From assembly GCA_965363875.1 (NCBI GenBank), contig CBDTTY010000002.1, forward strand, positions 1 to 40,695: DNA of 40,695 nt, in the 5' to 3' direction. This document shows, in pieces, positions 4,667 to 40,082 of this stretch; the first letter of the stretch is position 1, and every line of letters begins with the position of its first letter. Under the pieces are notes generated by a model. The model saw only the letters and a program-made list of their open reading frames with translations. It was not told the origin of the DNA and ran no database searches. This DNA is from an uncultured Anaerolineales bacterium. Its GTDB lineage: Bacteria > Chloroflexota > Anaerolineae > Anaerolineales > E44-bin32. The position numbers and the translations under genes are program-made.

Positions 4667-5704
4667 TTAACCTGGATTAATTGGGCAGGAAGGGTAAAGC
4701 AAGCATACCCAAAGCCAGAGGGGGATCAATCCACCAATTGTTAGAAATGCCAACAAACCAAGAGCGATCATGGTCCAATCCATCTCCGAAGCTATCGCAG
4801 GATTTTGAGGTGATATGGCCTTAACCTGTGCGAAATCTGTGATGTCCAATCCATCACCTGTGGGTGAGTGGTCTCCTGGGATGGCATCCAAGTTGAAATT
4901 CGTGAGGATCCGACCAAGTTGATCCGCGGTGCGGTAGCGAGCAGAGGGCTCCTTCGCGAGAACCTTTAGAACAATCTGCTGCAGGGATTCGGGGATGCTG
5001 GGCTCGATCAAGCGAGGATGAATTGGCTCAGCGGTCAGGTGAAGCTGAGCTAGGTCGGCTGCGTTATCCGCCACGAATGGAGGTTGACCGGTGATCATTT
5101 CGTAGAGGATCACTCCAAGAGAATAAACATCGCTGGCAGGTGAAGGTGCTCCCCCTGAGGCTTGCTCTGGAGAAAAATACTGAGGGCTTCCCCAAACAAC
5201 ATCTGAATGTTCATCGGGTTGGATTGTTGCCAGTGCACGGGAGACACCGAAGTCGGTAATCTTAATCTTGTTGTCAGGTGTAATCAGAATGTTTTGTGGT
5301 TTAAGATCACAGTGAACGAGACCTGCCCGGTGGGCATAGCCAACACCGTCGGAGATCTTTATCATTAACTCCACTGCCTCGAGTGGGGCAAGGAGTTTCC
5401 GCCGACGGATGAGAGTCTTTAAATCGGCCCCTGCGATGTACTCCATCACAATGTAAAGAGTATCGTCGTCACGGCCGAAGTCGAAAATGGTGACAATATT
5501 TGGATGGGAGAGATTCGCAGCTGCACGGGCTTCATGCAGGAAGTTCTCTTGGAAGGATTGATCCTTGGCAAGCGGATCGCGCAAGATTTTCGCTGCGACT
5601 TCGCGCTGGAGTTGATGGTCTAATGCGCGGTAAATATCTGCCATACCGCCGAAGCCGATTTTTTCAAGCAGCTCGTACCGTCCACCTAATAAATCCTGTG
5701 CCAT
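4667..5704 (-). CDS. Hanks-type Ser/Thr protein kinase with C-terminal membrane anchor
   Basis: Motifs GFGGMADIYRA, VAAKIL, HCDLKPQNIL, DFG and SPEQ, with a hydrophobic C-terminus WTMIALGLLAFLTIGGLIPLWLWVCLLY. The ORF track extends to a TTG at 5743. I prefer the ATG at 5704 (MAQDLLGGRYEL) because that TTG is part of a -35-like hexamer. Confidence 0.85.
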   Translation of the reverse strand: MAQDLLGGRYELLEKIGFGGMADIYRALDHQLQREVAAKILRDPLAKDQSFQENFLHEARAAANLSHPNIVTIFDFGRDDDTLYIVMEYIAGADLKTLIRRRKLLAPLEAVELMIKISDGVGYAHRAGLVHCDLKPQNILITPDNKIKITDFGVSRALATIQPDEHSDVVWGSPQYFSPEQASGGAPSPASDVYSLGVILYEMITGQPPFVADNAADLAQLHLTAEPIHPRLIEPSIPESLQQIVLKVLAKEPSARYRTADQLGRILTNFNLDAIPGDHSPTGDGLDITDFAQVKAISPQNPAIASEMDWTMIALGLLAFLTIGGLIPLWLWVCLLYPSCPINPG

Positions 5705-5714
5705 GGTGCTGACG

Positions 5715-5743
5715 ATTGTAATCCTTACAAGTATTCGCGGCAA
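5715..5743 (-). promoter_or_regulatory. putative sigma70-type promoter TTGCCG-N17-TACAAT for the kinase gene (near-leaderless)
   Basis: On the minus strand TTGCCG (5743-5738), a 17-nt spacer and TACAAT (5720-5715). The ATG at 5704 follows after 10 nt with no Shine-Dalgarno. Confidence 0.4.
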
Positions 5744-5790
5744 TGCAAGGAGAGAACACTATTTGACGCTATAATATCCTGAGGTAATTT

Positions 5791-6747
5791 ATGACGAATC
5801 GATGTGCCTGGTTGCTCTATAACCCTGCTGCAGGTAGGTTTCCTGCCGGCCCGCTTCTTGATCGGGCGATGCGTGTTCTCTCGACTGCGGGTTGGGATGC
5901 ACATCTTGTTAAAGGGGAACCGAAGAAAGGGGTGGTCGATATCGCCAAGGAGGCTGTTGCACAGCGCTGCGATGCTGTATTTGTAGTCGGCGGTGATGGT
6001 TCGATCGGCCAGGCAGCATCTGCGTTGGCGGGGTCGGAAACTGCTCTGGGTGTCCTGCCAGCTGGAACTGCAAATGTATGGGCGCAGGAACTCGGTCTAC
6101 CTCGCCTTGATTGGATCCATGTCTTTGCGTTGGAGCAGGCGGCTGAGAGATTAGCTGCCGGAGATGTCCGTTCCGTGGATGTCGGAGTGTGTAACGGTCA
6201 GGCATTCCTGTTATGGGCTGGCGTCGGGTTGGATGCACAGGTTGTCAACAGCATCGAACCGCGGGAGCGTTGGGAGAAAGCGTTTGCGACGGTCCATTAC
6301 GCAACATTGGCTTTATGGAATGCAATCGGGTGGGAAGGGATGAACTTAAAGGTTCGGACAGACAAGGACGAATTTGAAGGGCGATACCTGGTTGCTGTCG
6401 CCTCCAATATTCCTGCATATGCCGGCGGTTTGGTCGACTTAGCAACGGGCGCTAAGGTTGACGACGGTTTGCTGGATTTCTGGTTTATTGAGAGTGGAAA
6501 ACTTCGTGATGTCCTTGTGCGGGTAGCGCAGATTTTCATGGGTCGTCATGTGGATGCAGAAGGGGTAGACCACTTTCGAGCCAGCGAAGCGGTCTTCGAA
6601 ATGGAAAATGGACTACCTATACAGTTTGATGGTGAACCGTTGGTCCTTGACACCCCCCTTGAGTTCAGTGTTCAAAAGAAGGCGCTCAAGGTTCTCGTTC
6701 CAGGCGATGTAAATCCTGATCTGTTTGCTAGCAAATCCGATGGATGA
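5791..6747 (+). CDS. diacylglycerol-kinase-family lipid kinase (YegS/BmrU-like)
   Basis: 318 aa with the DAGK catalytic-domain motif VFVVGGDGSIGQAASAL...LGVLPAGTANVWAQELG. GAGG lies upstream of the ATG. Confidence 0.8.
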   Translation: MTNRCAWLLYNPAAGRFPAGPLLDRAMRVLSTAGWDAHLVKGEPKKGVVDIAKEAVAQRCDAVFVVGGDGSIGQAASALAGSETALGVLPAGTANVWAQELGLPRLDWIHVFALEQAAERLAAGDVRSVDVGVCNGQAFLLWAGVGLDAQVVNSIEPRERWEKAFATVHYATLALWNAIGWEGMNLKVRTDKDEFEGRYLVAVASNIPAYAGGLVDLATGAKVDDGLLDFWFIESGKLRDVLVRVAQIFMGRHVDAEGVDHFRASEAVFEMENGLPIQFDGEPLVLDTPLEFSVQKKALKVLVPGDVNPDLFASKSDG

Positions 6748-6921
6748 TGGATGAATGCTGAAAAGAATTAGATCTTATTCGAGAACCCAATGAATTTGAC
6801 ATTACCCATTGCAGCGGTCCTAGTTAAAGTAGCCGCGGTGTGCCTCTCACCAGGGTGGGTTCTCATTTCCACCGCGTTGACGATAATCCATCTCGATTTA
6901 ATTTCCTTCTTACTCCACTAA

Positions 6922-7422
6922 ATGGAAAACAAGCCTTCTCTCCCTAACGTTGTGAAGTCACACGGGCTATGGGCCGGACTGGGGGTCTTGTTGGGGGCAA
7001 TCACTTTGTTCGCCTTGATCGTGCTCGGATATTTCACTCGCCAAGCTCAAGTTTCAATACCTCCGGCGACACCGATATTAATTTTGATCAATGCGCCCAC
7101 AGCCTCCATAACCATCACGCCGCCACCAGAAACTGCCGAACCTGCGAATACTTCTACGCCTACACTTTCACCGGAAGCGAGTGGTTCGCTCTCGCTGGGG
7201 AGACTCGTCGAAGTCTATGGTACCGAAGGAGATGGCCTGCGGATGCGTGACAATGTTGGTTTGGATTCCAGGATTGTATTCGTAGCGGTTGAGAGTGAAG
7301 TCTTTGAATTGCGTGATGGTCCTGTGCAAAAAGATGGGTATGAATGGTGGTTCTTGGTTAACCCCTATAATTTGGATAAAACGGGTTGGGCTGTTAGCAC
7401 TTATTTGCAACCCATCGACTAG
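6922..7422 (+). CDS. membrane-anchored protein with Pro/Thr-rich linker and C-terminal SH3b-like domain
   Basis: 166 aa: one TM (GLWAGLGVLLGAITLFALIVLGYF), a P/T-rich linker, then GRLVEVYGTEGDGLRMRDNVGLDSRIVFVAVESEVFELRDGPVQKDGYEWWFLV...GWAVSTYL, typical of bacterial SH3. No clear RBS. Confidence 0.55.
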   Translation: MENKPSLPNVVKSHGLWAGLGVLLGAITLFALIVLGYFTRQAQVSIPPATPILILINAPTASITITPPPETAEPANTSTPTLSPEASGSLSLGRLVEVYGTEGDGLRMRDNVGLDSRIVFVAVESEVFELRDGPVQKDGYEWWFLVNPYNLDKTGWAVSTYLQPID

Positions 7423-7482
7423 AAGACGATTTGCTCCGTTAGTGTTCATGAGCTAATATTTGCCCGCCAAAGGAAGGCACAA

Positions 7483-7833
7483 GTGAAGAGAAAACCAAAG
7501 AGCGTCTCGGCCTCACGTAAGGAAGAGGTTTTGCGGATTGAATGGGAGGATGGTCACAAGAGCGAAATTCCTTTCGGCACGCTTCGTGCAGCTTGTCCCT
7601 GTGCAGATTGCCGCATGAGTCATGATCAAGATCAGAGTGCTGAGAAGGAAGATATGCTGGAACTGAATATTCGCGCTAAAAACACGACGATCCTCGAGAG
7701 GATCGAACAAGTAGGCAACTACGCAGTTCAGTTGGTTTGGCGCGATGGTCACCACGCTGGTATTTATACATGGGATTACCTTGATCACCTTAGCCTCGAT
7801 AGTGATCATGGCGGTGGAAGGAGACCGGTGTGA
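7483..7833 (+). CDS. DUF971 (gamma-butyrobetaine-hydroxylase-like N-terminal domain) protein
   Basis: 116 aa with a GTG start. LRIEWEDGHKSEIPFGTLRAACPCADC ... VGNYAVQLVWRDGHHAGIYTWDYL matches the DUF971 pattern from memory. Confidence 0.65.
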   Translation: MKRKPKSVSASRKEEVLRIEWEDGHKSEIPFGTLRAACPCADCRMSHDQDQSAEKEDMLELNIRAKNTTILERIEQVGNYAVQLVWRDGHHAGIYTWDYLDHLSLDSDHGGGRRPV

Positions 7834-8390
7834 AGGACCCTCTAGATGAGCTAATTAACTTCGCGGAGAGAACTTACGTTCGCTTAGAAGCGGAGACGCT
7901 CATCATGGATTGTATTGAGCGTGGAGAACCCAAACCCTTTTTCAAGCTTCTTGAAGAATTGATTCTTGCTGGCACATCTTCTCTCAGCGTGTTGCGGGAG
8001 ATTCTTGGTGTTATTAGAGTAATAAAAACTGGCCTGGGGAAAGAAGGGTTAGATGTACGCCAGGACCTCGTTGATGCCATGGCTGAATTTGGCGTCGCTT
8101 TGCCAAAGCTCCTCTCTGCCGAAGATCCTGAAGCATTCAGGCAGATATGTGGCTATGAGATGAGATTTAAGGTAAATGAGATCGCCTATCACTTGGAAAT
8201 TGAAGAAACCGCATTGCTTGAAGAAATCTGTATAGAAGCGGGGAATAAAGTAACTACGATTGCCGGAAGAATGGCGATCCTCACGCAGCTTGAAGAAAGT
8301 GTGCTAGATTGGATTGATGGTCTTACCTATGAGGCGGTCCATAATTTTGAGTATCCGGATTGGGATCACAGTCAAGCAATGAGTCATTGA
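7830..8390 (+). CDS. hypothetical all-helical acidic protein, translationally coupled to the DUF971 gene
   Basis: 186-aa ORF. Its GTG start overlaps the upstream stop (GTGA, 7830-7833). I recognise no motif. Confidence 0.5.
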   Translation: MKDPLDELINFAERTYVRLEAETLIMDCIERGEPKPFFKLLEELILAGTSSLSVLREILGVIRVIKTGLGKEGLDVRQDLVDAMAEFGVALPKLLSAEDPEAFRQICGYEMRFKVNEIAYHLEIEETALLEEICIEAGNKVTTIAGRMAILTQLEESVLDWIDGLTYEAVHNFEYPDWDHSQAMSH

Positions 8391-8581: not shown

Positions 8582-8606
8582 GAAAAGTAATGAGCCCGGA
8601 GGCTCA
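8582..8606 (-). terminator. putative intrinsic terminator of the NarL-type regulator gene
   Basis: On the minus strand TGAGCC-TCCG-GGCTCA is followed by TTACTTTTC, about 87 nt after the stop at 8693. Confidence 0.45.
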
Positions 8607-8692: not shown

Positions 8693-9361
8693 TTAAAGGT
8701 AGTCTTTCAAATTATGCTCGACGGCATAGGCAGCTGCTTCCGCTCGGTTGCGGACATTTAATTTAGAGAGAATGCTGCTGACGTAATTGCGAACAGTTCC
8801 CTCTCCAAGAAAGAGCATCTCGGCAATTTGACGGTTTGTCCGCCCTTCGGAAACAAGCTGCAATACGTGCATCTCCTGCTGGGTGAGTTCCGCAAAAGCC
8901 GAGGCTTCCTCCTCGCGAGCTGCTTTGCGGACCTCCTGGAACACCCTCTGAGTAACGGCGGGATCGAGCAAAGCTTCACCTCGTCCAATCGCCTCGATCG
9001 CTCGAACAAGATCGTCCCCGCCAATCTGCTTTAAGACATATCCAGCAGCCCCTGCGCGGATAGCTGAGAAGAGCATCTCGTCCTCGGCGTAGGATGTGAG
9101 CATGATGACTTTTGTATCGGGGTGGTTCTCGGTGATGTCCTGACAGGCTTCGATACCAGAGCCGCCCTTTAGGCGAATATCCATCACAACGACATCCGGT
9201 TTGTATGATTTTGTTTTCTCGATTGCATCACGAGGTCCAACCGCTTCGGCGACCACTTCGAAGCTTGGATGCTTCTCAAGCAGCGCTTTCAAACCTACCC
9301 GGACAACTTCGTGATCGTCTACAAGGAGTATACGTTGACGAGTCAATTGCCTTCCTTTCAA
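8693..9361 (-). CDS. NarL/LuxR-family response regulator (receiver + GerE HTH)
   Basis: Receiver motifs [24 protein letters not shown] and YVLKQ. The HTH reads [45 protein letters not shown]. Start is a TTG at 9361, or more likely the TTG at 9346 preceded by AAGGAAGG. Confidence 0.9.
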
Positions 9362-9382
9362 ATTCAGCTAATTATTATCCAG

Positions 9383-9411
9383 ATTCTAATCGAGGAGACG
9401 TTGTTGGACAA
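9383..9411 (-). promoter_or_regulatory. putative promoter TTGTCC-N17-TAGAAT for the NarL-type regulator
   Basis: On the minus strand TTGTCC (9411-9406), a 17-nt spacer and TAGAAT (9388-9383). Confidence 0.35.
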
Positions 9412-9530
9412 GGAGAGCCCTGCTGCTTACCCAGGTGAATACAGTATGGAGGATCCGTTTTCCACGGGTCCTAACCTCGATCTTTTGGATGGCGGAAACA
9501 ATGGCTACTCCAGAATTTAAAGAGGTGGGT

Positions 9531-10268
9531 TCAGGCATTTGCACGATTAACCAGGTCGCGCTTGTAATCGACAAATCGGTAACCTACTCCCCGTTCGGTG
9601 ATGATGTATTTGGGGTTCGATGGATCATCCTCGAGTTTCTGGCGTAAATAATTTATATAAAGCCGCAGGTAATGTGTTTCGTCACGGTATTCATATCCCC
9701 AGACTTTGGCAAGCAGCTGCTCATGGGGGACAACCCATCCTGCATTCTGTACAAGGTGGTATAGAAGGCGGAATTCGGTCGGACGGAGCTTAACGAGTTC
9801 ATCGTTTACCCATATCTCACGTCGGTCGAAGTCGATCTTTAGTCGGCTATCTACCTGGATAACATCGTGAACAGGTTGTCCGGCCATTTCGGTGCGCCGC
9901 AATACGGCTCGCACACGACTCACCAGCTCACGCGGGCTAAAAGGCTTGGTTATGTAGTCATCGGCGCCAAGCTCCAAACCTCGTACCCGATCTTCCTCCT
10001 CCCCCTTAGCGGTGAGCATAATTACAGGCACTGTGGATATGTCCCGAATAAGACGCAGCGTTTCGAAGCCGTCAAGATCTGGCATCATCACATCTAGTAG
10101 GACTAGATCTGGCAATCGATCTCGCATCTGGTCTAGCGCCTGAGTCCCAGAAGTGGCTTCATGGACTTCGAAGCCATCATGCTCAAGATTCAAGCGGATG
10201 AAGTGAATCATGCGCGGTTCATCGTCGACAACAAGAATCTTGCGCCGGCGAGGTGAGGATTCTGTCAT
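9531..10268 (-). CDS. OmpR-family response regulator (receiver + winged-helix)
   Basis: Receiver motifs [28 protein letters not shown] and YITKPF. The winged helix reads [17 protein letters not shown]...[10 protein letters not shown]. The ATG lies 1 nt after the upstream stop (TAAAATG). Confidence 0.92.
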
Positions 10269-10269
10269 T

Positions 10270-10512
10270 TTATTCCCGGACGAAACCGATGAGGTCTTCG
10301 TCTTCTTTGGTGGGGAGGATCTCTATGAAAAAGACTCGATGCATTGGCCAGACGACACTTGTAACCGTCTCGTGCAAGAAAGACAAATCTTTGTCATCCT
10401 TACGCCGGGGATTATTTACTGTAATCGACGTATCTTGCGGTCCTGGTACATCTTCGATCTCACCAAGAACCGCTTCCTCACCTGATATATGGAGCAGAAT
10501 TGTATAAGACAT
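10270..10512 (-). CDS. 80-aa hypothetical protein embedded in the kinase/FHA operon
   Basis: ATG lies 3 nt after the FHA stop and the TAA lies 1 nt before the regulator ATG. I recognise no motif. Confidence 0.6.
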
Positions 10513-10515
10513 AGG

Positions 10516-11040
10516 CTACCCTGACCCTTTTATCTGCTGCGAGATAATCTGCAGCCTTAAGCGACCCACCTGGATGATATCACCATGATTAACAAGTGAA
10601 GCCTCATGGCCTTTGAGGCGCTTACCGTTTACGATTGTCCCATTCGCACTATCTAGATCGATCACGAATACTCCATCTTTCTCAATCCTCAGTTCGGCGT
10701 GCATTCTGGAAAGGCCTTGATCAAAGGCGTCGTATTTTGCCAGGTCGACATCTGGAATAACCGCCTGGCCTTCAATCGATCGCCCTAGTGTGAAATTGTC
10801 CCGCCCGAGCAGTGAGATGATGTCGCCTGAGGAAACAACGCGGATTCCCAACAGCGATCCGGTTGACAGGTCGGGACCTGGAGGAGGGGATGGTTTGGTC
10901 GCCTTTGCTTCCTGGTTGATTTTGTCGGGCGATATTGACATCGTTGGGATTGGGGAAGCGTGGACCAGTCGAGTGCCGCACTCGCTGCAGAACAAGGTGC
11001 CGACGAATTCATGGTGATTACATGATGGGCATTCGATCAT
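10516..11040 (-). CDS. zinc-ribbon + FHA domain protein
   Basis: N-terminal CPSCNHH...CSECG, a Pro-rich linker, then the FHA core FTLGRS...LSRMHAELRIEKDGVFVIDLDSANGTIVNGKRL. The ATG overlaps the upstream stop (ATGA). Confidence 0.9.
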   Translation of the reverse strand: MIECPSCNHHEFVGTLFCSECGTRLVHASPIPTMSISPDKINQEAKATKPSPPPGPDLSTGSLLGIRVVSSGDIISLLGRDNFTLGRSIEGQAVIPDVDLAKYDAFDQGLSRMHAELRIEKDGVFVIDLDSANGTIVNGKRLKGHEASLVNHGDIIQVGRLRLQIISQQIKGSG

Positions 11041-12515
11041 GACTCACTCGTAGGTGGAAGTAATAGTAAAGCCCGGGTACCGTATTTTAATGTCTTTTCT
11101 CCTTCTGTCGAGAAGCGCTTGGAACGAGACAGTTGTACGGCTTCATGAAGCGCGGCTTTTGCGAGATCGCGTTCGCCCGCAGCGAGAAGTTGTGTAGCGA
11201 GGTTCTCCAATCTCCTTGCGGCTTGCGAGGATTGACCGAGTTCAACCTCATGGCGCGCTTTTTCCTGCATTTTGTATAAAGCGAGCATATTCAACGCGGA
11301 ACTAATCTCCTGCGGCGGTGGTTGAGGGTCGGCTTCGCTTGAGACCGGTAAACTGATATCTAAGGGGAGTGTCTTTACCTCTGAATCTGCACCAACCAGA
11401 TCCCCTCTGAGATTGAGGTGAGCAAGCGTGAGCTCGCTTGCGCCCGCAAGCGGATGGACAATAAGTTCGAGTAGAAGACGGACGGAACCATTCCTCGGGA
11501 GATGACCGAGTGTCATTGGAAAGCTGTCGCCGAGCGGCATTGGCTCCGGAAGGAGACGATAAGCCGAACGCAAATCAACTTGCTGACCCAACGCTCCATC
11601 GATTTGTAAAGTTTTGGCAATGATCTGAGTCAAGCTGTCGTAGATTGAATGCAGCAAATCTGTTATAGCCCGTGGTGTGTTTAAAAAGATGACATGCCCG
11701 CCTGTTCGACTTGCGATTTCGTCTAGCAAGCGATCGCTCCAATCAGAGCCGATGCCAACGCAGTTGATAGTGATACCTGCCGCGGCGGCTTGATCTGCAA
11801 GCTCTAGACAGAGCTCTTCATCCCCATAAGTTCTCCCGTCCGTGAGCAGGACAAGATGGTTGACACCTTCTTTTGAGAACGTTTGGTGGATCTCATCTAA
11901 GCCAGTAGTCAAGCCCTGGGCGATCTCTGTGCCGCCACCAGCCTGCAGGAGGCTTAATCGAGCTCGGGCAGTGGCTAAGACTTTGGCTTGATCTGGCGAA
12001 ACAATAACATCAGCGCGATCGCTGAAAGCGGTGATGGACGTGTTGTCCTCTGGGTGTAAATCTTGAAGGATTGCCAATACTGCAGCTCGTACCTGGTCCA
12101 TCCGCTTACCATCCATCGAAGTTGAACGGTCGATCACGATGCTGAGGTTAATGGGTGGCCGGATCTCCGGCAAATCTTCAGAGGGGAAGATATCAAGAAG
12201 GATATAGTGAACTTGTGGTTCGTCGAGGTCGAGTAAGTTGTTCCGACTATTGAGTATGTTTAAGTGGAATGGTGAGGCCGCTGCGAAGGCAACATCCGCA
12301 GCCGCCAATTCCTCATCATACGCTGCCCGAAGATCGGGGTCTATGAGGATTTCATATGCCTTGCTTACACTTAGGAAGAGCTCCGTCTCGCCAACGCGGA
12401 TGTTTTTATCTGGGTGGAGTTGGAGGGCGGCTTCGCGGAAGGCGCGTCGGATTTGTTCCGCTGTCGCGTTTCTTGGCACTTTGAGGAGGGTATAGTAATC
12501 CTTCTCCACTGACAC
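11037..12515 (-). CDS. J-domain (DnaJ) + von Willebrand factor A domain fusion protein
   Basis: J domain DYYTLLKVPRNATAEQIRRAFREAALQLHPDKN (HPD present). vWA with MIDAS-like LSIVIDRSTSMDG and LVLLTDGRTYGDE. Helical C-terminus. GTG start with AAGGA overlapping the PP2C stop. Confidence 0.85.
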   Translation of the reverse strand: MSVEKDYYTLLKVPRNATAEQIRRAFREAALQLHPDKNIRVGETELFLSVSKAYEILIDPDLRAAYDEELAAADVAFAAASPFHLNILNSRNNLLDLDEPQVHYILLDIFPSEDLPEIRPPINLSIVIDRSTSMDGKRMDQVRAAVLAILQDLHPEDNTSITAFSDRADVIVSPDQAKVLATARARLSLLQAGGGTEIAQGLTTGLDEIHQTFSKEGVNHLVLLTDGRTYGDEELCLELADQAAAAGITINCVGIGSDWSDRLLDEIASRTGGHVIFLNTPRAITDLLHSIYDSLTQIIAKTLQIDGALGQQVDLRSAYRLLPEPMPLGDSFPMTLGHLPRNGSVRLLLELIVHPLAGASELTLAHLNLRGDLVGADSEVKTLPLDISLPVSSEADPQPPPQEISSALNMLALYKMQEKARHEVELGQSSQAARRLENLATQLLAAGERDLAKAALHEAVQLSRSKRFSTEGEKTLKYGTRALLLLPPTSES

Positions 12516-12523
12516 CTAATTCC

Positions 12524-13417
12524 TTAATCAGAAGGAAAACGAACGATAACAACAGAGATGTTATCAGGACCACCGGCGAGGTTCGCGGCTTGGACAAGTT
12601 GCTCGCAGGCGATTTGTGGGTGAGGTGCATCGTTCACGACATGCTTAATCTGGGGATCGGGTACCACACCCCAAAGGCCATCCGAGCAGATAAGCAGATG
12701 TCCCCCCTTCGGTGCGGTGGTTGTGAAAACATCAATTTCAAGATTAGCGCCCTGACCGATGGCACGATATAGAACATTGCGTTGGGGATGCGATTCGGCT
12801 TCCTCAGCAGTGAGTTGACCTAGTTCCTTGAGCCGTTCGACCAATGAATGATCTCTGGTCAGGATCTCGATTTGGCCATTATTGATGGAGTAGGCGCGGC
12901 TATCACCGACATGACCGATTGTCATTTGTGATCCAAGCAGCAACGCTGCGGTCATTGTCGTTCCACCGCCGGGAACTTGCTCCACAACCGCGGAGTTCGC
13001 TTCATCCAAAGCATCATGAAGGAGTTCTTGCAGCGGGAGCATTTCATTAGGGCTATCCAAATCGAGAATATGAAGGATGGTCTCTTCCATTAATTTCCGA
13101 GCAACGGAACGGATGGAGATGTTGCTGGCGACCTCTCCTGATCGATGGCCGCCCATCCCGTCAGCGACCATGAAAAGGCCAAATTCAGGAAGCGGCTCAG
13201 CTCCTGCAGAATCCCCTTTGATAACCAGCTGTGCATCCTCATTATGACTTCGCTCGAGACCAGTTGACTGGCTTGCACCGACGATGATCCGATCGTTGGG
13301 GGCGGAATGATAGGCGCGGTTTATCACAGACTCTCCACCCATCAGCAGGGAGCCAGTTTTGGTCTGAGAGGGAGATGATCCAAAAATGCGGGAAAAGAAA
13401 GTTTTCAAAGAGGTCAT
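12524..13417 (-). CDS. PP2C-family Ser/Thr phosphatase
   Basis: Motifs FMVADGMGGHRSGEVAS, GTTMTAALL, VGDSRAY, LICSDGLW and NLAGGPDNISVVIV. Confidence 0.9.
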   Translation of the reverse strand: MTSLKTFFSRIFGSSPSQTKTGSLLMGGESVINRAYHSAPNDRIIVGASQSTGLERSHNEDAQLVIKGDSAGAEPLPEFGLFMVADGMGGHRSGEVASNISIRSVARKLMEETILHILDLDSPNEMLPLQELLHDALDEANSAVVEQVPGGGTTMTAALLLGSQMTIGHVGDSRAYSINNGQIEILTRDHSLVERLKELGQLTAEEAESHPQRNVLYRAIGQGANLEIDVFTTTAPKGGHLLICSDGLWGVVPDPQIKHVVNDAPHPQIACEQLVQAANLAGGPDNISVVIVRFPSD

Positions 13418-13452
13418 TTATTGTTGTCTCATTAATGTTTCTAGTAGATTAC

Positions 13453-15336
13453 CTACGCGATTAGAGCGTACACCTTGTGATCCGTTGAACCGATGTAAAG
13501 GACGTTATTAGAGATAAAGGGTGTGCCTGTGATTGGGGCGTCTGAATGAAACCGCCAGCGTAGCCGGCCTGTCTTGTGGTCAAGGCAGTATAAGGAGCCG
13601 TCGACGGATCCGCAATAGATTGATCCATCATGTGCAACCGGCGAGCCGGTAACCTGGTGATCTGTTTCGTAGCGCCAAATCTCACGTGCGTGCTTGGCAT
13701 CGACGCAATATATATTATTGTCCCCGCAGCCTATGAAAAGTAAGCCATCAGCGAAGGATGGGGACGAGATCGTTGCGCCCCGCATCCGAAAACGCCAAAT
13801 CTGCCACCCGTTTTCCGAATCAATTGCATACATGGTCCAATCCCGAGATCCATAGTAGACAATGTCATCAACGATGATCGCAGAGGAGGTGATGCCTCTC
13901 TTCGCTTTCTTCCTCCACTTCAATTCCCCTTTAAAGTTATAGCAGTAAAAATCGCCGCTCTCACAGCCGAAATAAACGAGTTCATTCTGTACAAATGGAG
14001 TGGACCAGATCGCATCGTTCGCTTCAACGCGCCATGCACGGCGGCCATTCATCTGGTTTACTACATGAAGCCGTCTGTCATCGGAACCGATAAATATATG
14101 CCCTTCGGAAAGGGTGGGAGAGGAGCGGATTGGACCTTCAGCGTAATACGTCCAGACCAGGCTGCCTCGATTTGCGGTTAGTGCATAGAGACGGCCATCC
14201 TCGGAGCCAATGAAGATGACTCCATCCTCGGCTGCGGGCTTTCCCGTTATGCCGCCCTCCGTTGCATATTTCCATTGGAATTCGCCCGTTTGTTTATCTA
14301 AAGCATACAGGTTATTGTCATAACAGCCCACATAGACGGTATCCTCGAATACCAACGGGGAGCCGCGAATCTCATCCTCGCATTTAAACGACCAGATCTC
14401 CTCGATCTTATCGCTCTGTGCGATCACTGCAGCGACACTGGGTGCGCTCAGCAATCCTGTACGCTTTGCGGCTGAGATCATGGCCTCTTTCATGATCATG
14501 GCGGAAGGGTAGCGATCCTTGGGATCATACGCGAGGGCGGTAGAGATCACGGTCTCTATTTCGGGCGAAATAAGGGGATTGATCGATCGAGCCGGTCTCT
14601 CGGCGAAAGAAAATGGTGCTTCAACGCGCGGATCTCTTTTTGTGAGGAGATGGTGCAGTGTTGCTCCGAGGGCGTAGACGTCACCAGCTGGAGAAGCCTC
14701 GCCGCGGTACTGCTCAGGTGGCGAGTACCCCTCGGTGCCGATCATCGTCCCTTTTTCGCCGGGTTGAAAGTTGCGGGCGATACCAAAATCGATCAATCTC
14801 ACATGGTTGTGGTGATCGATCATTACATTCGAAGGTTTGATATCTCGGAAGATGATCGGCTCGGGCTGGATGTTGTGTAAATAGGAGAGAACATCGCAGA
14901 GTTCAATCGCCCAACCGATGACTTTCTCTTCCGGCAGGAAGTCGGTGGATTCAGCGAGAATCGCTTCAAGATCATCACCGTCGATAAATTCCATAACTAG
15001 GTAGGATCGTTTCTTATGTGAGAAATTGTCGTAGATTGCGGGAGTTGCCGGGTGGGAGAGGGTTGCGAGAAGATCTGCCTCACGCTCAAAATTTTTCACG
15101 ATCATTTCATGCATCGAGTGATCGGCGATGAGATTCACCATCTCTTTAATGGCGACAAGCTTGGTAACGTTAGGGAAATGAAGGTCGCGCCCTTTGTACA
15201 CAGAACTCATCCCGCCGGCGCCCAGCATGCCCAGGATAAGATATCGATCTTCAAGTGTGGTGCCCGGCGGTAAACGGTCTAGGCTTTCACTCTCGCCTTG
15301 GCCGCTATCATCGAGCTGGCGTGTTGTTCTTGGCAT
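13453..15336 (-). CDS. Hanks-type Ser/Thr kinase fused to an eight-repeat PQQ-like beta-propeller
   Basis: Kinase motifs GAGGMSSVYKG, VAIKEM, FRDIKPSNVM, DFG and SPPEQ. Eight repeats of the type xVYxGsxDxxLYAlDxxtGxxxWr follow. I see no hydrophobic segment long enough for a TM between the domains. Confidence 0.9.
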   Translation of the reverse strand: MPRTTRQLDDSGQGESESLDRLPPGTTLEDRYLILGMLGAGGMSSVYKGRDLHFPNVTKLVAIKEMVNLIADHSMHEMIVKNFEREADLLATLSHPATPAIYDNFSHKKRSYLVMEFIDGDDLEAILAESTDFLPEEKVIGWAIELCDVLSYLHNIQPEPIIFRDIKPSNVMIDHHNHVRLIDFGIARNFQPGEKGTMIGTEGYSPPEQYRGEASPAGDVYALGATLHHLLTKRDPRVEAPFSFAERPARSINPLISPEIETVISTALAYDPKDRYPSAMIMKEAMISAAKRTGLLSAPSVAAVIAQSDKIEEIWSFKCEDEIRGSPLVFEDTVYVGCYDNNLYALDKQTGEFQWKYATEGGITGKPAAEDGVIFIGSEDGRLYALTANRGSLVWTYYAEGPIRSSPTLSEGHIFIGSDDRRLHVVNQMNGRRAWRVEANDAIWSTPFVQNELVYFGCESGDFYCYNFKGELKWRKKAKRGITSSAIIVDDIVYYGSRDWTMYAIDSENGWQIWRFRMRGATISSPSFADGLLFIGCGDNNIYCVDAKHAREIWRYETDHQVTGSPVAHDGSIYCGSVDGSLYCLDHKTGRLRWRFHSDAPITGTPFISNNVLYIGSTDHKVYALIA

Positions 15337-15352
15337 AATTTATATGTTTCGG

Positions 15353-15380
15353 ATTATAGCATGAGAGACATGCGCCGCAA
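15353..15380 (-). promoter_or_regulatory. putative promoter TTGCGG-N16-TATAAT of the kinase operon
   Basis: On the minus strand TTGCGG (15380-15375), a 16-nt spacer and TATAAT (15358-15353). The ATG at 15336 is 16 nt downstream with no SD. Confidence 0.4.
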
Positions 15381-15446
15381 TTGAAAACAATGCAAAATCT
15401 GTGTAATTGTAAGTACCACGTAAGGTTTTACCTGACTCTACGGGAT

Positions 15447-17929: not shown

Positions 17930-19126
17930 TTACGGCTTTTTCGATTTCGGCTTCGATTGTTTTGTTTTCTTTCCCTTCGATGGACCGGTTTTCGAATGCC
18001 TGGTAAGTAAGCGGTTTATCTCTTTCTCCTCATCGATTTGAGAGGAAAGGTAGTCATCGATAAAACCGGATCTGCGCAGCCGCAGTGCCATCTTGGCGAT
18101 TTTCTCCACATCAGCTGCTTCAGCTTTTTCCCGTCCGTCTGCCACTGCGTGAGCTCGAGCCGCTTCAAAGAGCGTGATCTCGGCTCGAAGCGAATGGATT
18201 CCCATACCATCGATTAGATGAAGCCCGAAGTCTTGCGCCTCTTTTGTAAGTTTAACATTTAGAAGAGCGGCCCTTGCCGATTGAAGCTCATCACGGACCT
18301 GCATTATGACCTCTTCGTATTCAGCGATCACCTGACGGGGATTGCTGCGATGAGCGATGGATCGGCGATACGCCTCTAAGCGCTGCTCGGGATCATCTAA
18401 ACCGCGTACAACCAGGCGTAAGCCGAAACGATCGAGGATCTGTGGGCGTAAACGACCTTCTTCTGGATTCATCGACCCAATTAAGACAAACCGGGCGCGG
18501 TAGGTGGCACTGAGTGTTCCGCGATAGAGTGTGTATATTCCCTGCGCAGAAGCGTCGAGGACGGCGTTAACAATATCGTCATCAAGCAAATTTACTTCGT
18601 CAACATATAGGATATTATTATCCGCTCGAGCGAGAATTCCGCGGTTTAGACGCAGTCGTTTTTGGACAGCTGCACGTTCATCGATTCCGCCAACAACATC
18701 ATCAAGTCGTGCGTTTAAAGGGAGCTCTATTAACCGAACGCGATCCTTATACGTGAGTGGATCACCCTCGGCATAGCGTCGAGCGCAATCCGCGCATACC
18801 TCGTCCATACCGCCCGAAGTGACATCTTCAGGAAGGCAACCGTATGGGCAACGACTCCTGGAGACCTCAGGGAGTAAGTCTGACAGGCTCCTGACCGCGG
18901 TTGTCTTCCCAGTCCCACGAGGGCCGACAAGCAACACCCCACCAATATTGGGATTAATTAACGCCAACATCAACGCTAATTTCATCTCTTGTTGGGCAAC
19001 AATTGCCAGGAAGGGGAAGGGAAGGTGTTCCGCCAGACCCATATCTTCTGGCGGTGGAGTCTCAAGGAATCGTTTCGCGCCTGCTTGAGCCAGAAGGTCG
19101 GTGAGGGTTTCAATCTTCCTTGTCAA
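17930..19126 (-). CDS. ChlI/BchI-like (Mg-chelatase subunit I family) AAA+ ATPase with Lys-rich tail
   Basis: FPFLAIVAQQEMKLALMLALINPNIGGVLLVGPRGTGKTT (Walker A), LYVDEVNLLDD (Walker B), MNPEEGRLRPQILDRFGL, a Cys cluster CPYGC...CADC and the C-terminal tail KGKKTKQSKPKSKKP. The TTG start overlaps the upstream stop (TTGA). Confidence 0.8.
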   Translation of the reverse strand: MTRKIETLTDLLAQAGAKRFLETPPPEDMGLAEHLPFPFLAIVAQQEMKLALMLALINPNIGGVLLVGPRGTGKTTAVRSLSDLLPEVSRSRCPYGCLPEDVTSGGMDEVCADCARRYAEGDPLTYKDRVRLIELPLNARLDDVVGGIDERAAVQKRLRLNRGILARADNNILYVDEVNLLDDDIVNAVLDASAQGIYTLYRGTLSATYRARFVLIGSMNPEEGRLRPQILDRFGLRLVVRGLDDPEQRLEAYRRSIAHRSNPRQVIAEYEEVIMQVRDELQSARAALLNVKLTKEAQDFGLHLIDGMGIHSLRAEITLFEAARAHAVADGREKAEAADVEKIAKMALRLRRSGFIDDYLSSQIDEEKEINRLLTRHSKTGPSKGKKTKQSKPKSKKP

Positions 19127-21683: not shown

Positions 21684-23282
21684 CTAGGGAGCCCAATCCA
21701 TGATCTGCGTTTGACCATCAGCGGTCAGCTGCTGGCCAATCCCGGTATCGACATCAACAATCCAGAGATCTCCTCGATAGATTACAGCAATTCGATCCCC
21801 GCCGGGTGACCAAACCGGACCGGGAAGAGATGGTTCCAGTCCGGGATCGCCGGACGGCGGGAACAAGTAGCGTAAATTGCTGCCGTCGCGATCCATAACC
21901 GCTACACGGTAGGTGCTGTCCTGACTCTCTAGCGGCGTGATGGCCTGCAGGAAAGCTACGCGGTACGAGATCTCGGCGGTGTGTGTACTAAGAATCTCAG
22001 AAACAGTTGGGTAAGCAAACATCCCGGTTCGCTCCGCAAGTGTAAGCTTCAGATTGCTCCCCATTGTGCGAGCTTCGATATTAAAAACGGGAGATGCCTG
22101 GGGGCTCTCGAGACCAATAGGCTCATCATGAGCTACAAAATAAATCGTCTGATTGTCCCGTCCCCAAACGAGTCCGGGAACCCAAGCCCAGTCCCCAAGA
22201 GTTTGAAAAGGGATGATCTCTTGCAGTGTGATGAGCTCGTTTTTATCGAGGTCTACAAGACCATAACTGTCTGCGCGAACATATGCCAGGTGGTCGCTGT
22301 CGTATCCCCAGACATAGTTCGTCCCCCACCAGCCGTACTGACCTCCGGCGTTGGCTTCAATAATTGTGCGGGGTCGGAGGGCACGACCTGCGCCTGTGAA
22401 GGTGATCGTCACCAAGTCATTATTAGCTTGCCAGCCGGGCGAGGCGATGCTGGATTCGGATGTTGAATAGGTAATCGTAAAAGAAGGTTTCTGAGGAACC
22501 CAGTCTGCGAAATGGATTATGTTGCGGACGCCCAGATCGAGCATTTCAAACTCAGAGTCAACCATTGATGCGACCCAGAGTCCGTTAATCGTATCCTCCT
22601 CCTCGGGGGTTTCGCGGGTAAAGAGCACCCATTGACCATCGGGGGAAATCTTAAGGATACGTCCATCCAGATCACCGGAAACGACAAGCGGGCGCCGGCT
22701 GCCACTGCTGCCTTCGATGACCCATAGATTCCCGCTTGTGATGTACACAAGGCTGCCATCAATCGTGACTGGCGAATGTGTGCTTTGAGTGCCGATCATG
22801 ATAATCTCAGGTACGGGTTCGGCAATAATGACATTCTTGACCGGGGCTCTGGAGATTTCTATATCTGCCTCGATTAATATCCGATATGTGATTTCTTGTA
22901 AGCCGTTCTGGCCTGGCTGTAAAAGACGTGTCTCACCTTCGGGCAAGGCTTCATTGCGGACAGTTTGACGATCGAAGGGGATTATTATTTCCTCGATCTC
23001 GAAACTCTCAAGCACTCGTGTGATCTCGATCTCAGTGCCAGCGGATAGGACTGTATACCCCGGAGGGTTTACTCGATCCAAGGAACCAAGGATCACGCCA
23101 GCGGAGTCAAGTGCTTGCTGAACACTGGCACCAGAAGGCACTTCAACCGTTTCGATAGAATCATCCACGTGTAGGAGAACTTGAATCATTCCTGCGGTTG
23201 CCTGCGGCCGAGCGCAAGAACTCAGGATCAAGATGAGTGACGTGATGAGGATGTAGAATTGGTTACGCAGTGTTTGGCTCAT
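21684..23282 (-). CDS. lipoprotein with DUF348-like + G5 domains and a PD40/TolB-like beta-propeller
   Basis: Lipobox LILSSC. DUF348-like VEVPSGASVQQALDSAGVILGSLDRVNPPGYTVLSAGTEIEITRV. G5-like IIPFDRQTVRNEALPEGETRLLQPGQNGLQEITYRI...IIMIGT. PD40-like SPDGQWVLF and WSPGGDRIAVIYRGDLWIVD. Confidence 0.7.
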   Translation of the reverse strand: MSQTLRNQFYILITSLILILSSCARPQATAGMIQVLLHVDDSIETVEVPSGASVQQALDSAGVILGSLDRVNPPGYTVLSAGTEIEITRVLESFEIEEIIIPFDRQTVRNEALPEGETRLLQPGQNGLQEITYRILIEADIEISRAPVKNVIIAEPVPEIIMIGTQSTHSPVTIDGSLVYITSGNLWVIEGSSGSRRPLVVSGDLDGRILKISPDGQWVLFTRETPEEEDTINGLWVASMVDSEFEMLDLGVRNIIHFADWVPQKPSFTITYSTSESSIASPGWQANNDLVTITFTGAGRALRPRTIIEANAGGQYGWWGTNYVWGYDSDHLAYVRADSYGLVDLDKNELITLQEIIPFQTLGDWAWVPGLVWGRDNQTIYFVAHDEPIGLESPQASPVFNIEARTMGSNLKLTLAERTGMFAYPTVSEILSTHTAEISYRVAFLQAITPLESQDSTYRVAVMDRDGSNLRYLFPPSGDPGLEPSLPGPVWSPGGDRIAVIYRGDLWIVDVDTGIGQQLTADGQTQIMDWAP

Positions 23283-25262: not shown

Positions 25263-25343
25263 AGCGAAACTAAGTGCATAGAGTAATAAATCTATGTGTC
25301 GAAGAGTTATCGTCTATCGCCCATTTCCGGCGAGGGAGAATCT

Positions 25344-40000: not shown

Positions 40001-40082
40001 GCGCTGGTGCTGGAATTGGCAGACAGGCATGGTTGAGGATCATGTGCCGCAAGGCGTGCGGGTTCAAGTCCCGCCCAGCGCA
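40001..40082 (+). tRNA. tRNA-Leu (anticodon GAG), class II with long variable arm, CCA not encoded
   Basis: Hand fold: acceptor GCGCTGG/CCAGCGC, D stem CTG/CAG with a GG loop, anticodon stem CATGG/TCATG, loop TTGAGGA (anticodon GAG), variable arm TGCCGCAAGGCGT, T arm GCGGG-TTCAAGT-CCCGC, discriminator A. The 3' flank is CTA. Confidence 0.93.

Follow-up and report, generated by a model that had tools for sequence, protein, structure and literature searches.

A conserved six-gene cassette of Chloroflexota that probably links protein phosphorylation to gene expression

The DNA described here is a stretch of 40,695 nucleotides from an uncultured Anaerolineales bacterium (NCBI GenBank assembly GCA_965363875.1, contig CBDTTY010000002.1, positions 1 to 40,695), referred to below as the window. 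Between positions 8693 and 15380 it carries a cluster of signalling genes on the minus strand. Six of these genes form a cassette that is conserved as a unit across class-level Chloroflexota diversity, including Anaerolineae, Ardenticatenaceae-type and other lineages. The cassette encodes a Hanks-type Ser/Thr kinase, a PP2C phosphatase, a fusion of a J-domain with a vWA domain (J-vWA), a protein with a zinc ribbon and an FHA domain (ZnR-FHA), an 80-residue protein (s80) and an OmpR-type response regulator. On the strength of structure prediction, the J-vWA and ZnR-FHA pair is read as the bacterial equivalent of a phospho-switch known from archaea, ArnB/ArnA, to which a J-domain has been added. 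The cassette probably represents a pathway, so far undescribed, by which protein phosphorylation acts on gene expression, possibly on that of heat-shock genes.

Seven co-oriented minus-strand open reading frames (ORFs) were called in this region. They encode the kinase (13453-15336, 627 amino acids), the PP2C phosphatase (12524-13417, 297 amino acids), J-vWA (11037-12515, 492 amino acids), ZnR-FHA (10516-11040, 174 amino acids), s80 (10270-10512, 80 amino acids), the OmpR-type regulator (9531-10268, 245 amino acids) and, as first called, a NarL-type regulator (8693-9361, 222 amino acids). The junctions measure, in this order, 35, 8, -4, 3, 1 and 169 nucleotides (nt). The ZnR-FHA gene overlaps the J-vWA gene by 4 nt (ATGA), and the OmpR-type gene starts 1 nt past the stop codon of s80 (TAAAATG). 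A sequence check found no transmembrane segment in any of the seven proteins, and the cassette is therefore taken to be cytoplasmic. An earlier note on this DNA, made from the letters alone, had given the same ORFs, coordinates, junction lengths and promoter hexamers, and its domain calls were all borne out by profile searches of Pfam and NCBIfam. It had also regarded the seven genes as a single unit, a view that did not survive comparison with other genomes.

To define the conserved unit, the GTDB species representatives were scanned for s80. The protein was found to be encoded in 385 genomes, and the best 80 loci were retrieved, of which 64 span the region; 88 loci were considered in total, including the divergent L085-L088. 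The order kinase, PP2C, J-vWA, ZnR-FHA, s80 and OmpR-type regulator was observed on one strand in 63 of the 64 spanning loci, and the kinase match is fragmented in the single exception. Locus L005 (Anaerolineales bacterium E44_bin32) shares 94-99% protein identity with the window and probably comes from the same species or a close relative. Housekeeping genes flanking the cassette are also syntenic within the order. In eight distant genome loci this flanking synteny is lost and the six genes still lie together. The same holds for four divergent Chloroflexota lineages (L085-L088), in which the flanks are wholly different (RelA, thioredoxin, HSP20, RtcB) and the six-gene order is intact. From kinase to OmpR-type regulator, the median junctions across loci are 34, 12, -4, 9 and 1 nt. 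In none of the 78 measurable loci does the junction between J-vWA and ZnR-FHA exceed 5 nt, and most have a 4-nt overlap there; the junction between s80 and the regulator is 1 nt in most loci. The cassette shows signs of vertical inheritance and of strong purifying selection in a housekeeping context. The expected conservation of gene order, the absence of which had been named as refuting the proposal, thus extends across hundreds of species.

The seventh gene behaves differently. The NarL-type gene lies within 1.1 kb downstream of the cassette in 47 of 63 loci and is missing there in the other 16, and it is absent in all four divergent lineages. Where present, it is separated from the cassette by 68-950 nt (never less than 68 nt), at times with an hsp20 gene between. 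Elements resembling CTTGTC/CTTGCC-N17-TAGAAT are conserved upstream of it across loci, regardless of which gene comes before. In the window, consensus scanning and conservation place its own promoter, TTGTCC-N17-TAGAAT, at 9383..9411 on the minus strand. Alignment of the orthologous 5' ends and the position of the Shine-Dalgarno sequence indicate that translation begins at a second TTG codon (TTG-9346), giving a NarL/GerE-type response regulator of 217 amino acids (8693..9346, minus strand) and a gap of 184 nt to the OmpR-type gene. The protein matches the Pfam models Response_reg (4e-28) and GerE (4e-18). The NarL-type regulator is a frequent neighbour rather than a core member, and with high confidence the conserved unit comprises six genes.

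Three retrieved records stand apart from the general pattern. Locus L008 (JAIWHF010000010.1) is labelled 'Methanosarcinales archaeon' and shows 93-99% protein identity to the window over the whole syntenic block; it is almost certainly a mis-binned Anaerolineales contig. The metagenome-assembled genome CAYZXF01 carries two different cassette copies on two contigs (L048 and L063, with s80 proteins 65% and 60% identical to that of the window), which may reflect a genuine duplication or else a bin of mixed origin. On the long-read contig of L086 (6950-8417), J-vWA is encoded by two separate ORFs of 192 and 271 amino acids, likely because of a frameshift or pseudogenisation in this one lineage.

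The J-vWA protein matches the Pfam models DnaJ (5e-20) and VWA (8e-22). The J-domain occupies residues 1-68 with the HPD motif at 34-36, which is invariant in homologs. J-vWA has neither a Gly/Phe-rich (G/F) region nor a zinc-finger region and thus belongs to neither class A nor class B of the DnaJ proteins. In an AlphaFold2 model (predicted local distance difference test, pLDDT, of 82), the J-domain is followed by two beta-strands (83-111), the vWA domain (122-295), a beta-sandwich (298-392), a three-helix bundle (402-464) and a disordered tail. The modelled topology is that of a vWA domain inserted in a beta-sandwich and followed by a C-terminal helical bundle, and the MIDAS (metal-ion-dependent adhesion site) of the vWA domain is complete (DRSTS, T and D). 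When the model was compared with the PDB by Foldseek, ArnB was matched first (8s05_A/B, E 4e-22 to 8e-22), with alignments covering the whole ArnB chain. The template modelling (TM) scores, normalised to the ArnB chain, were 0.67-0.73, at 16-18% identity in the structural alignment. The next matches were 4FX5 (3e-21), an uncharacterised actinobacterial protein, and ArnE 5a8j (2e-17). A phmmer search of the PDB with the J-vWA sequence returned 8s05_A (3e-8) and the ArnB paralog 5a8j (2.7e-4), values similar to those of other vWA proteins. In sequence searches of the PDB, both partners hit entry 8S05: J-vWA its chain A, and the FHA protein, though weakly, its chain C. As modelled, the fold of J-vWA is very probably ArnB-like.

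The Arn proteins of Sulfolobus have been studied in detail. The Hanks kinase ArnC phosphorylates the C-terminal helical domain of ArnB, and the phosphorylation is reversed by PP2A (PMC6509490, PMC12852372). It was shown experimentally that the zinc ribbon of ArnA binds the beta-sandwich of ArnB and that the FHA domain of ArnA binds phosphothreonines (PMC6509490, PMC12852372). The ArnAB complex has no DNA-binding surface, and its output probably passes through other DNA-binding proteins (PMC6509490, PMC12852372).

The second member of the pair, ZnR-FHA, consists of an N-terminal C4 zinc ribbon (C4, C7, C18, C21), a variable linker and a C-terminal FHA domain. The FHA domain was matched in Pfam at 9e-16 and retains the GR, SxxH and NG motifs; matches to zinc-ribbon models were weak. 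The spacing of the cysteines, CxxC-N10-CxxC, is that of C21/C24/C35/C38 in ArnA. The earlier proposal that phosphothreonine and FHA recognition gates an assembly on the vWA and J-domain protein gains support, as a general idea, from the predicted structural likeness of J-vWA to ArnB.

A candidate site for such recognition was found in the tail of J-vWA. The motif KYGTRAL (K477-Y-G-T480-R-A-L483; 11067..11087, minus strand) falls within a stretch modelled at low confidence, which is presumably disordered. It is invariant in 39 close J-vWA homologs, and KYGTR[A/S]L is also kept, within an otherwise divergent tail, in cassettes whose J-vWA proteins are only 37-42% identical. FHA domains classically prefer phosphothreonine with Leu at position +3. 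As judged from the sequence, T480 is a candidate phospho-acceptor and a likely phosphothreonine site for docking of the FHA domain.

The enzymes that could write and erase such a mark are encoded in adjacent genes, and the catalytic motifs of both are intact. The kinase has a Hanks-type domain (residues ~35-284) and a C-terminal eight-blade PQQ-type beta-propeller (~305-627), whose eight blades of ~40 amino acids can be discerned in the sequence. It matches the Pfam models Pkinase (2e-39), Beta-prop_ACSF4 (4.5e-70) and PQQ_2 (4e-53) and contains the motifs VAIK61, FRD163 and DFG183, with no PASTA or transmembrane sensor parts. Against the NCBIfam equivalog model for AfsK (NF053615) it scores 232 bits, far under the cutoff of 1300 bits; the two kinases have only their architecture in common. 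The phosphatase is Stp1/IreP-like (Pfam PP2C 3e-12; NCBIfam Stp1_PP2C 220 bits, cutoff 230 bits), and its metal-binding motifs DGMGG, GDSR, SDG and DN are all present.

The small protein s80 is a real, lineage-restricted and previously unannotated family of small beta-barrels. Its close homologs fall into 197 clusters, nearly all exactly 80 amino acids long, with 28 invariant columns. A profile search of 1.84e9 representatives returned just 198 clusters at 50% identity. With a profile of divergent members, 1363 clusters at 90% identity were collected, almost all of ~80 amino acids, and the named members among them belong to Chloroflexota (Anaerolineales, Ardenticatenaceae and others). No family in Pfam, NCBIfam or PADLOC matched s80, and the protein was seen nowhere but inside the cassette. 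Its AlphaFold model (pLDDT 88.7) is a five-stranded small beta-barrel with an acidic flexible tail that ends in an invariant LIGFVRE. A separate observation concerns P0365, a 213-residue protein fragment in which PQQ blades homologous to the propeller of the kinase (E 6e-19) are joined to a module resembling s80 (E 9e-12) from which the ~15 N-terminal residues are missing. P0365 could be a true fusion or an artefact of assembly or gene calling; read at face value, its sequence suggests an interaction between the propeller and s80.

The last gene of the cassette encodes a DNA-binding regulator of canonical OmpR/PhoB type. The OmpR-type regulator matches the Pfam models Response_reg (4e-34) and Trans_reg_C (4e-26), and its best NCBIfam model is RpaB (232 bits against a cutoff of 330 bits). 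KdpE, PhoP, MtrA, RegX3 and RpaA are its closest solved structures. It is the most conserved protein of the cassette, with 75-89% identity where J-vWA has 37-43%. As had been claimed, the DD/D/T/K phospho-acceptor set is intact in both the OmpR-type and the NarL-type receivers. Phosphorylation of OmpR-family regulators by Ser/Thr kinases is established, with CovR (at T65), WalR, GraR and RitR as examples (PMC4601284).

A possible output of the regulator is indicated by the gene that often follows it. An hsp20 gene (alpha-crystallin) lies after the OmpR-type gene on the same strand in 14 of the 63 spanning loci (about 19 loci overall) and in the distant L087. The distance is 100-230 nt in L043, L050, L054-L056, L059, L061, L062, L065, L069, L073, L077, L078, L082, L084 and L087. 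Unbiased motif discovery by expectation maximisation on 15 hsp20 upstream regions returned GCTAACG-N4-TCTnACGC with a log-likelihood of 137.5, against 50-55 in shuffled sequences. This motif is a CTnACG direct repeat with an 11-bp period, located -69 to -98 from the ATG and just upstream of -10-like hexamers. Its geometry agrees with tandem sites of the OmpR/PhoB family, and its half-site is similar to HLR1 of RpaB, which has a period of 10. A position weight matrix (PWM) of the motif was used to scan 1.36 Mb of loci, and outside the training sites hits of at least 15 bits occurred only ~98 nt upstream of ftsH. Among distinct ftsH upstream regions, 10 of 50 reach at least 10 bits, compared with fewer than 1% of random windows; the ten sites are not independent and fall into roughly three related groups of loci. 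In the control sets, no hits were obtained upstream of the NarL-type gene (0/54) or of IDI2 (0/51). The distribution of the tandem repeat hints at a link between the cassette and proteostasis genes, with the regulator as the putative binder. Such a link fits the presence of the J-domain.

These elements can be arranged into one mechanism leading from the kinase to gene expression through an ArnAB-like switch. The kinase would sense an intracellular cue via its propeller and phosphorylate Thr480 of J-vWA, and PP2C would reverse the modification. The zinc ribbon of ZnR-FHA would sit loosely on the beta-sandwich until the FHA domain clamps the phosphothreonine, which would produce a loose/tight switch as in ArnA-ArnB. 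The J-domain would recruit a DnaK encoded elsewhere, which might remodel the complex or act on a bound client, so that the state of the complex would depend on both phosphorylation and free Hsp70. This state would then be relayed to the co-translated pair of s80 and the OmpR-type regulator, with s80 probably serving as a small adaptor or connector on the regulator or on the kinase propeller, with either the barrel or the LIGFVRE tail as its contact. The regulator would in turn control target promoters, likely those of hsp20 and ftsH in many relatives, via the CTTACG repeat at the -35 position, and the output would consist of proteostasis or stress genes. Through the intact Asp pocket, input from a histidine kinase or acetyl-phosphate may converge on the regulator. 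As a whole, the scheme is tentative and falls a little short of an even chance. A more ambitious version sees in the cassette the master pathway that governs proteostasis (heat shock) in Anaerolineae and their Chloroflexota relatives. J-vWA would report free Hsp70, the kinase and PP2C would determine its phospho-state, and the FHA protein and an Sm-like s80 would relay the signal to the regulator, which would activate hsp20, ftsH and further promoters via pho-box-like CTTACG repeats; this version is unlikely to be correct.

Several observations weigh against the mechanism. With regard to the switch, ZnR-FHA matches ArnA (5a8i, 4e-3; 8s05_C, 6e-3) more weakly than it matches GarA/OdhI, and the sequences allow that the J-vWA/ZnR-FHA pair may be analogous rather than orthologous to ArnA/ArnB. 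With regard to the J-domain, a DnaK gene was found within 10 kb of the cassette in none of the 88 loci; GroEL and ClpB genes were likewise absent from this distance in all 88. The structural matches of s80 in the PDB are weakly Sm/LSm-like, with a best E of 6.5e-3 (LSm domain of Edc3) and TM scores of 0.55-0.66. The model has no N-terminal helix and no PDB match was obtained at E <=1e-3. Assigning a function to s80 from its fold was abandoned at this level of similarity, and only a fold class is given. The locus of P0365 was not found at the DNA level in the metagenome collection. For the proposed output, the window has no hsp20 gene downstream of the regulator, and the motif instances in the window are not significant (five hits of at least 9 bits against 8.5 expected). 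The clade of the window likewise has neither the hsp20 gene at this place nor the repeat that precedes it. The ftsH promoter of the window was considered as a motif target and rejected for this genome, with a score of -1.3. The connection between motif and regulator rests on adjacency and on a tandem-repeat geometry typical of the OmpR family. Finally, the OmpR-type regulator looks fully competent for phosphorylation on Asp, and the syntenic locus L003 has a histidine kinase (GAF-PAS-HisKA-HATPase_c) ~8 kb from the cassette.

The last two points support the alternative that the regulator is an ordinary two-component regulator, driven through Asp59 by a distal histidine kinase, and that the Ser/Thr genes are merely co-expressed with it or fine-tune it in the manner of Stk1/CovR. 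Its receiver has all the residues needed and can be aligned over the full length with those of KdpE, PhoP and MtrA, and known regulators modulated by Ser/Thr kinases also have cognate histidine kinases. The earlier note had called both regulators orphans. No histidine kinase was found in the 40.7-kb window, including its ~30 other ORFs and two edge fragments, as had been stated, or adjoining the cassette in the six neighbourhoods annotated with Pfam (L001, L003, L085-L088). A span of 40 kb is nevertheless insufficient for the term, since the histidine kinase of L003 (18136-18243 onward) follows an aminotransferase gene and its equivalent position in the window would lie just outside the left edge, beyond coordinate 1. 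Against a distal kinase as the whole explanation, the six genes stay together even where the flanks differ completely between lineages, and the 1-nt junction between s80 and the regulator together with the invariant gene order favours a functional complex over co-expression. Control by a distal kinase, with the Ser/Thr module not the main input, is regarded as doubtful.

A second alternative places the cassette in the control of growth, division or envelope synthesis in these filamentous bacteria, with the regulator in an essential role like that of MtrA or WalR and with the association to hsp20 and ftsH as secondary. Comparable cases would be fhaA-fhaB-pstP-pknA-pknB, a cluster of actinobacteria, and AfsK, a PQQ-propeller kinase, acting on DivIVA/AfsR; the cassette kinase does have an AfsK-like architecture. 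In addition, a cluster of FHA, PP2C and kinase genes is conserved here in the core genome beside housekeeping genes, and the regulator, at 75-89% conservation, gives good scores against the MtrA, YycF/WalR and RpaB models. Every one of these NCBIfam scores is, however, well under its equivalog cutoff. Cell-wall or division genes (rodA, pbpA, divIVA) were found neither within the cassette nor next to it, whatever the lineage, the kinase is without PASTA or transmembrane sensor parts, and the sole recurrent functional neighbours are hsp20 and the motif common to ftsH. A dedicated role in growth or division is therefore quite unlikely.

It has also been considered that the cassette is a vWA-centred conflict or anti-phage system, with its kinase acting as a defence kinase. 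Systems of the type that Kaur et al. (2020) collected include vWA proteins together with kinases, PP2C and FHA proteins. Two PADLOC models, PD-T4-6 and mad6, are matched by the kinase domain, and the window has a MoxR/ChlI-like AAA+ gene at a distance of 2.6 kb upstream of the cassette. The PADLOC matches are to generic kinase and PP2C domains only, with none for J-vWA, the FHA protein or s80. No effector domain is present, the AAA+ gene is unlinked in the divergent lineages, and the apparent vertical inheritance, purifying selection, housekeeping context and absence of a composition anomaly all speak against defence. This explanation is very improbable. Least credible of all is inherited synteny without functional coupling, in which independent genes were simply never shuffled: the housekeeping flanks are likewise syntenic within Anaerolineales, but order, strand and near-zero spacing are kept in eight distant loci and in four lineages with lost or different flanks, and s80 is never seen outside the cassette.

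Expression of the cassette as a unit is in keeping with a promoter upstream of the kinase gene (15353..15380, minus strand). It consists of a -35-like TTGCGG (15380-15375), a spacer of 16 nt and an extended -10 element TGCTATAAT (15361-15353) that includes TATAAT (15358-15353), and 16 nt separate it from the ATG. TTGCGG agrees with the sigma-70 -35 consensus TTGACA at 3 of 6 positions, which is why the consensus scan did not list the promoter. As a good sigma-70 -35 hexamer it was rejected on this count, although the element is conserved. Among ~60 aligned orthologous upstream regions, TGCTATAAT is nearly invariant and TTGCG/A lies 16-17 nt upstream of it, in DNA that has otherwise diverged. 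The promoter is supported by this phylogenetic footprint in diverged intergenic DNA. It had been described as near-leaderless; the hexamers stand, and the short distance to the ATG proved to be confined to the clade of the window, with 14-45 nt elsewhere. Upstream of the -35 element lies a tandem repeat, CCTTACGTGGTACTTACAA (CTTACG-N5-CTTACA, 11-bp period; 15407..15425, minus strand), which is a weak candidate for an OmpR-family site. Its score with the PWM of the hsp20 promoters, 9.2 bits, does not exceed what chance would give in the window, and it is conserved in the clade of the window only. Autoregulation of the cassette via the hsp20-type motif was rejected as a general feature, as only one of 61 regions upstream of the kinase gene reaches 9 bits; CCTTACGTGGTACTTACAA as an autoregulatory site is a clade-specific lead.

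Pfam scans of ~30 other ORFs of the window showed housekeeping genes and a second, tail-anchored Hanks kinase, and of the fragments at the two edges one encodes a class-III aminotransferase and the other an ABC ATPase. The base composition shows nothing unusual, and a tRNA gene (40001-40082, plus strand; 49.3 bits) was the only RNA element matched in the window by Rfam. A terminator-like hairpin (8591-8606, minus strand) lies 3' of the NarL-type gene and comes from a consensus scan only. The second kinase (358 amino acids, with a C-terminal transmembrane anchor; 4667-5743, minus strand) is encoded downstream of the cassette in a group (4667-8390) that also contains genes for a DAGK-like lipid kinase, a 166-residue protein, a GBBH-like_N protein and a 186-residue protein of unknown function. 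The synteny of this group downstream of the cassette is kept across the order, and in the distant L087 (13692-15727) a GBBH-like_N protein, an SH3_3 protein and a 348-residue kinase are still encoded near the cassette; the group may be loosely associated with it. The MoxR/ChlI-like AAA+ ATPase gene mentioned above (Mg_chelatase, AAA_lid_2, weak bpMoxR; 17930-19126, minus strand) is syntenic within the order and not in the divergent lineages. MoxR proteins frequently have vWA proteins as partners. The window further encodes a 1166-residue protein with a PMT_2 glycosyltransferase membrane domain and multiple NHL repeats (25296-28796, plus strand) and, not far from it (21684-23282), a G5/DUF348 protein that contains part of a DPPIV_N-like propeller.

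FHA/vWA phospho-switches are structurally understood only in Sulfolobus. Hundreds of bacterial species have a pair of this kind hard-wired to a J-domain, a new small protein and a regulator that binds DNA, which makes the path from input to output directly testable. It would also be unusual for one conserved operon to unite a Hanks kinase module with a two-component regulator, and for a J-domain to be part of a signalling scaffold. The cassette adds a new protein family and a candidate stress-gene motif in a bacterial class that is large, abundant in the environment and little studied. If the master proteostasis version were true, the design would be one not seen elsewhere and would supply the missing output of ArnAB-type switches. 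Should the regulator merely be run by a distal histidine kinase, the value would fall to that of a well-documented conserved neighbourhood.

Parts of the design are already known, namely neighbourhoods of kinase, PP2C and FHA (and vWA) genes, the ArnAB switch and the Ser/Thr phosphorylation of OmpR-family regulators. Themes of kinase, PP2C and vWA neighbourhoods have also been described in actinobacteria. In full-text searches of incomplete coverage, no description was found of the six-gene combination, the fusion of a J-domain with an ArnB-like protein or the s80 family. The pathway has more precedent than the earlier note supposed, as FHA/vWA pairs under the control of Hanks kinases are characterised in the archaeal Arn network; the additions of the J-domain, s80 and the response regulator were not met with in the papers searched.

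Several known systems share individual features with the cassette. Small connector proteins are known to bind response regulators, as PmrD does on phospho-PmrA. Like these, s80 is ~80 amino acids long; its gene accompanies that of an OmpR-family regulator, and the two proteins are presumably synthesised in concert. The likeness is one of size and gene context only, and the P0365 fusion points to the propeller instead. The AfsK-AfsR-AfsS/KbpA system of Streptomyces comprises a PQQ-propeller kinase, the regulator AfsR with an OmpR-type DNA-binding domain and the very small AfsS. RqkA of Deinococcus has also been named as a PQQ-propeller Ser/Thr kinase (bioRxiv 10.64898/2026.01.23.701218). AfsK, RqkA and the cassette kinase are all cytoplasmic Hanks kinases with a C-terminal PQQ-type propeller. 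Unlike the cassette regulator, AfsR is a SARP/STAND protein without a receiver; AfsS is unrelated to s80, and the AfsK system has no FHA/vWA/J module. A closer parallel in gene content is the operon DRA0331-DRA0334 of Deinococcus radiodurans (vWA, STPK, FHA, KI-FHA-PP2C), which likewise combines vWA, Hanks kinase, FHA and PP2C genes and for which an FHA/phosphatase push-pull has been shown in vitro (bioRxiv 10.64898/2026.01.23.701218). Its kinase is transmembrane and its PP2C has its own FHA domain, and it has no J-domain, s80 or response regulator.

On the output side, the motif upstream of hsp20 and ftsH, a direct repeat with TTAC[A/G] half-sites overlapping the -35 position, resembles promoters of the RpaB/HLR1 type (PMC6525291) and of the PhoB/pho-box type. 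The cassette-associated motif differs from HLR1 in its period (11 bp rather than 10) and is a predicted site, and the regulator scores under the RpaB cutoff. Ser/Thr control of OmpR-family regulators has been described for Stk1-CovR, SP-STK/WalR, Stk1-GraR, StkP/PhpP-RitR and PknH-EmbR (PMC4601284). The path from a kinase and PP2C to a winged-helix regulator is shared with what is proposed here, and in PknH-EmbR, FHA-mediated recognition is involved, as proposed for the cassette. In those cases the kinase and regulator are not in one operon, and there is no vWA protein, J-domain or small adaptor. In the cassette, the phospho-signal may act through an ArnAB-like complex rather than by direct phosphorylation of the regulator.

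The Arn module of Sulfolobus acidocaldarius (kinases ArnC/ArnD, phosphatase PP2A; PDB 8S05, 5A8I, 5A8J), which represses motility, can be compared with the cassette in more detail. Both systems consist of an adjacent gene pair encoding a tripartite vWA protein with a MIDAS and a partner with a C4 zinc ribbon and an FHA domain. Both have Hanks kinase and phosphatase genes nearby, no DNA-binding domain of their own in the vWA/FHA pair and a candidate phosphothreonine in the C-terminal region of the vWA protein. Arn regulates the archaellum and motility, and no motility genes were found in the window or in the annotated cassette neighbourhoods. The cassette is bacterial rather than crenarchaeal, and its vWA protein has an extra N-terminal J-domain, three predicted helices in the bundle and a conserved Thr in the disordered tail after it. 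PP2C takes the place of PP2A, and the kinase carries a PQQ propeller. Unlike the Arn module, the cassette also includes s80 and an OmpR-type regulator within the same operon.

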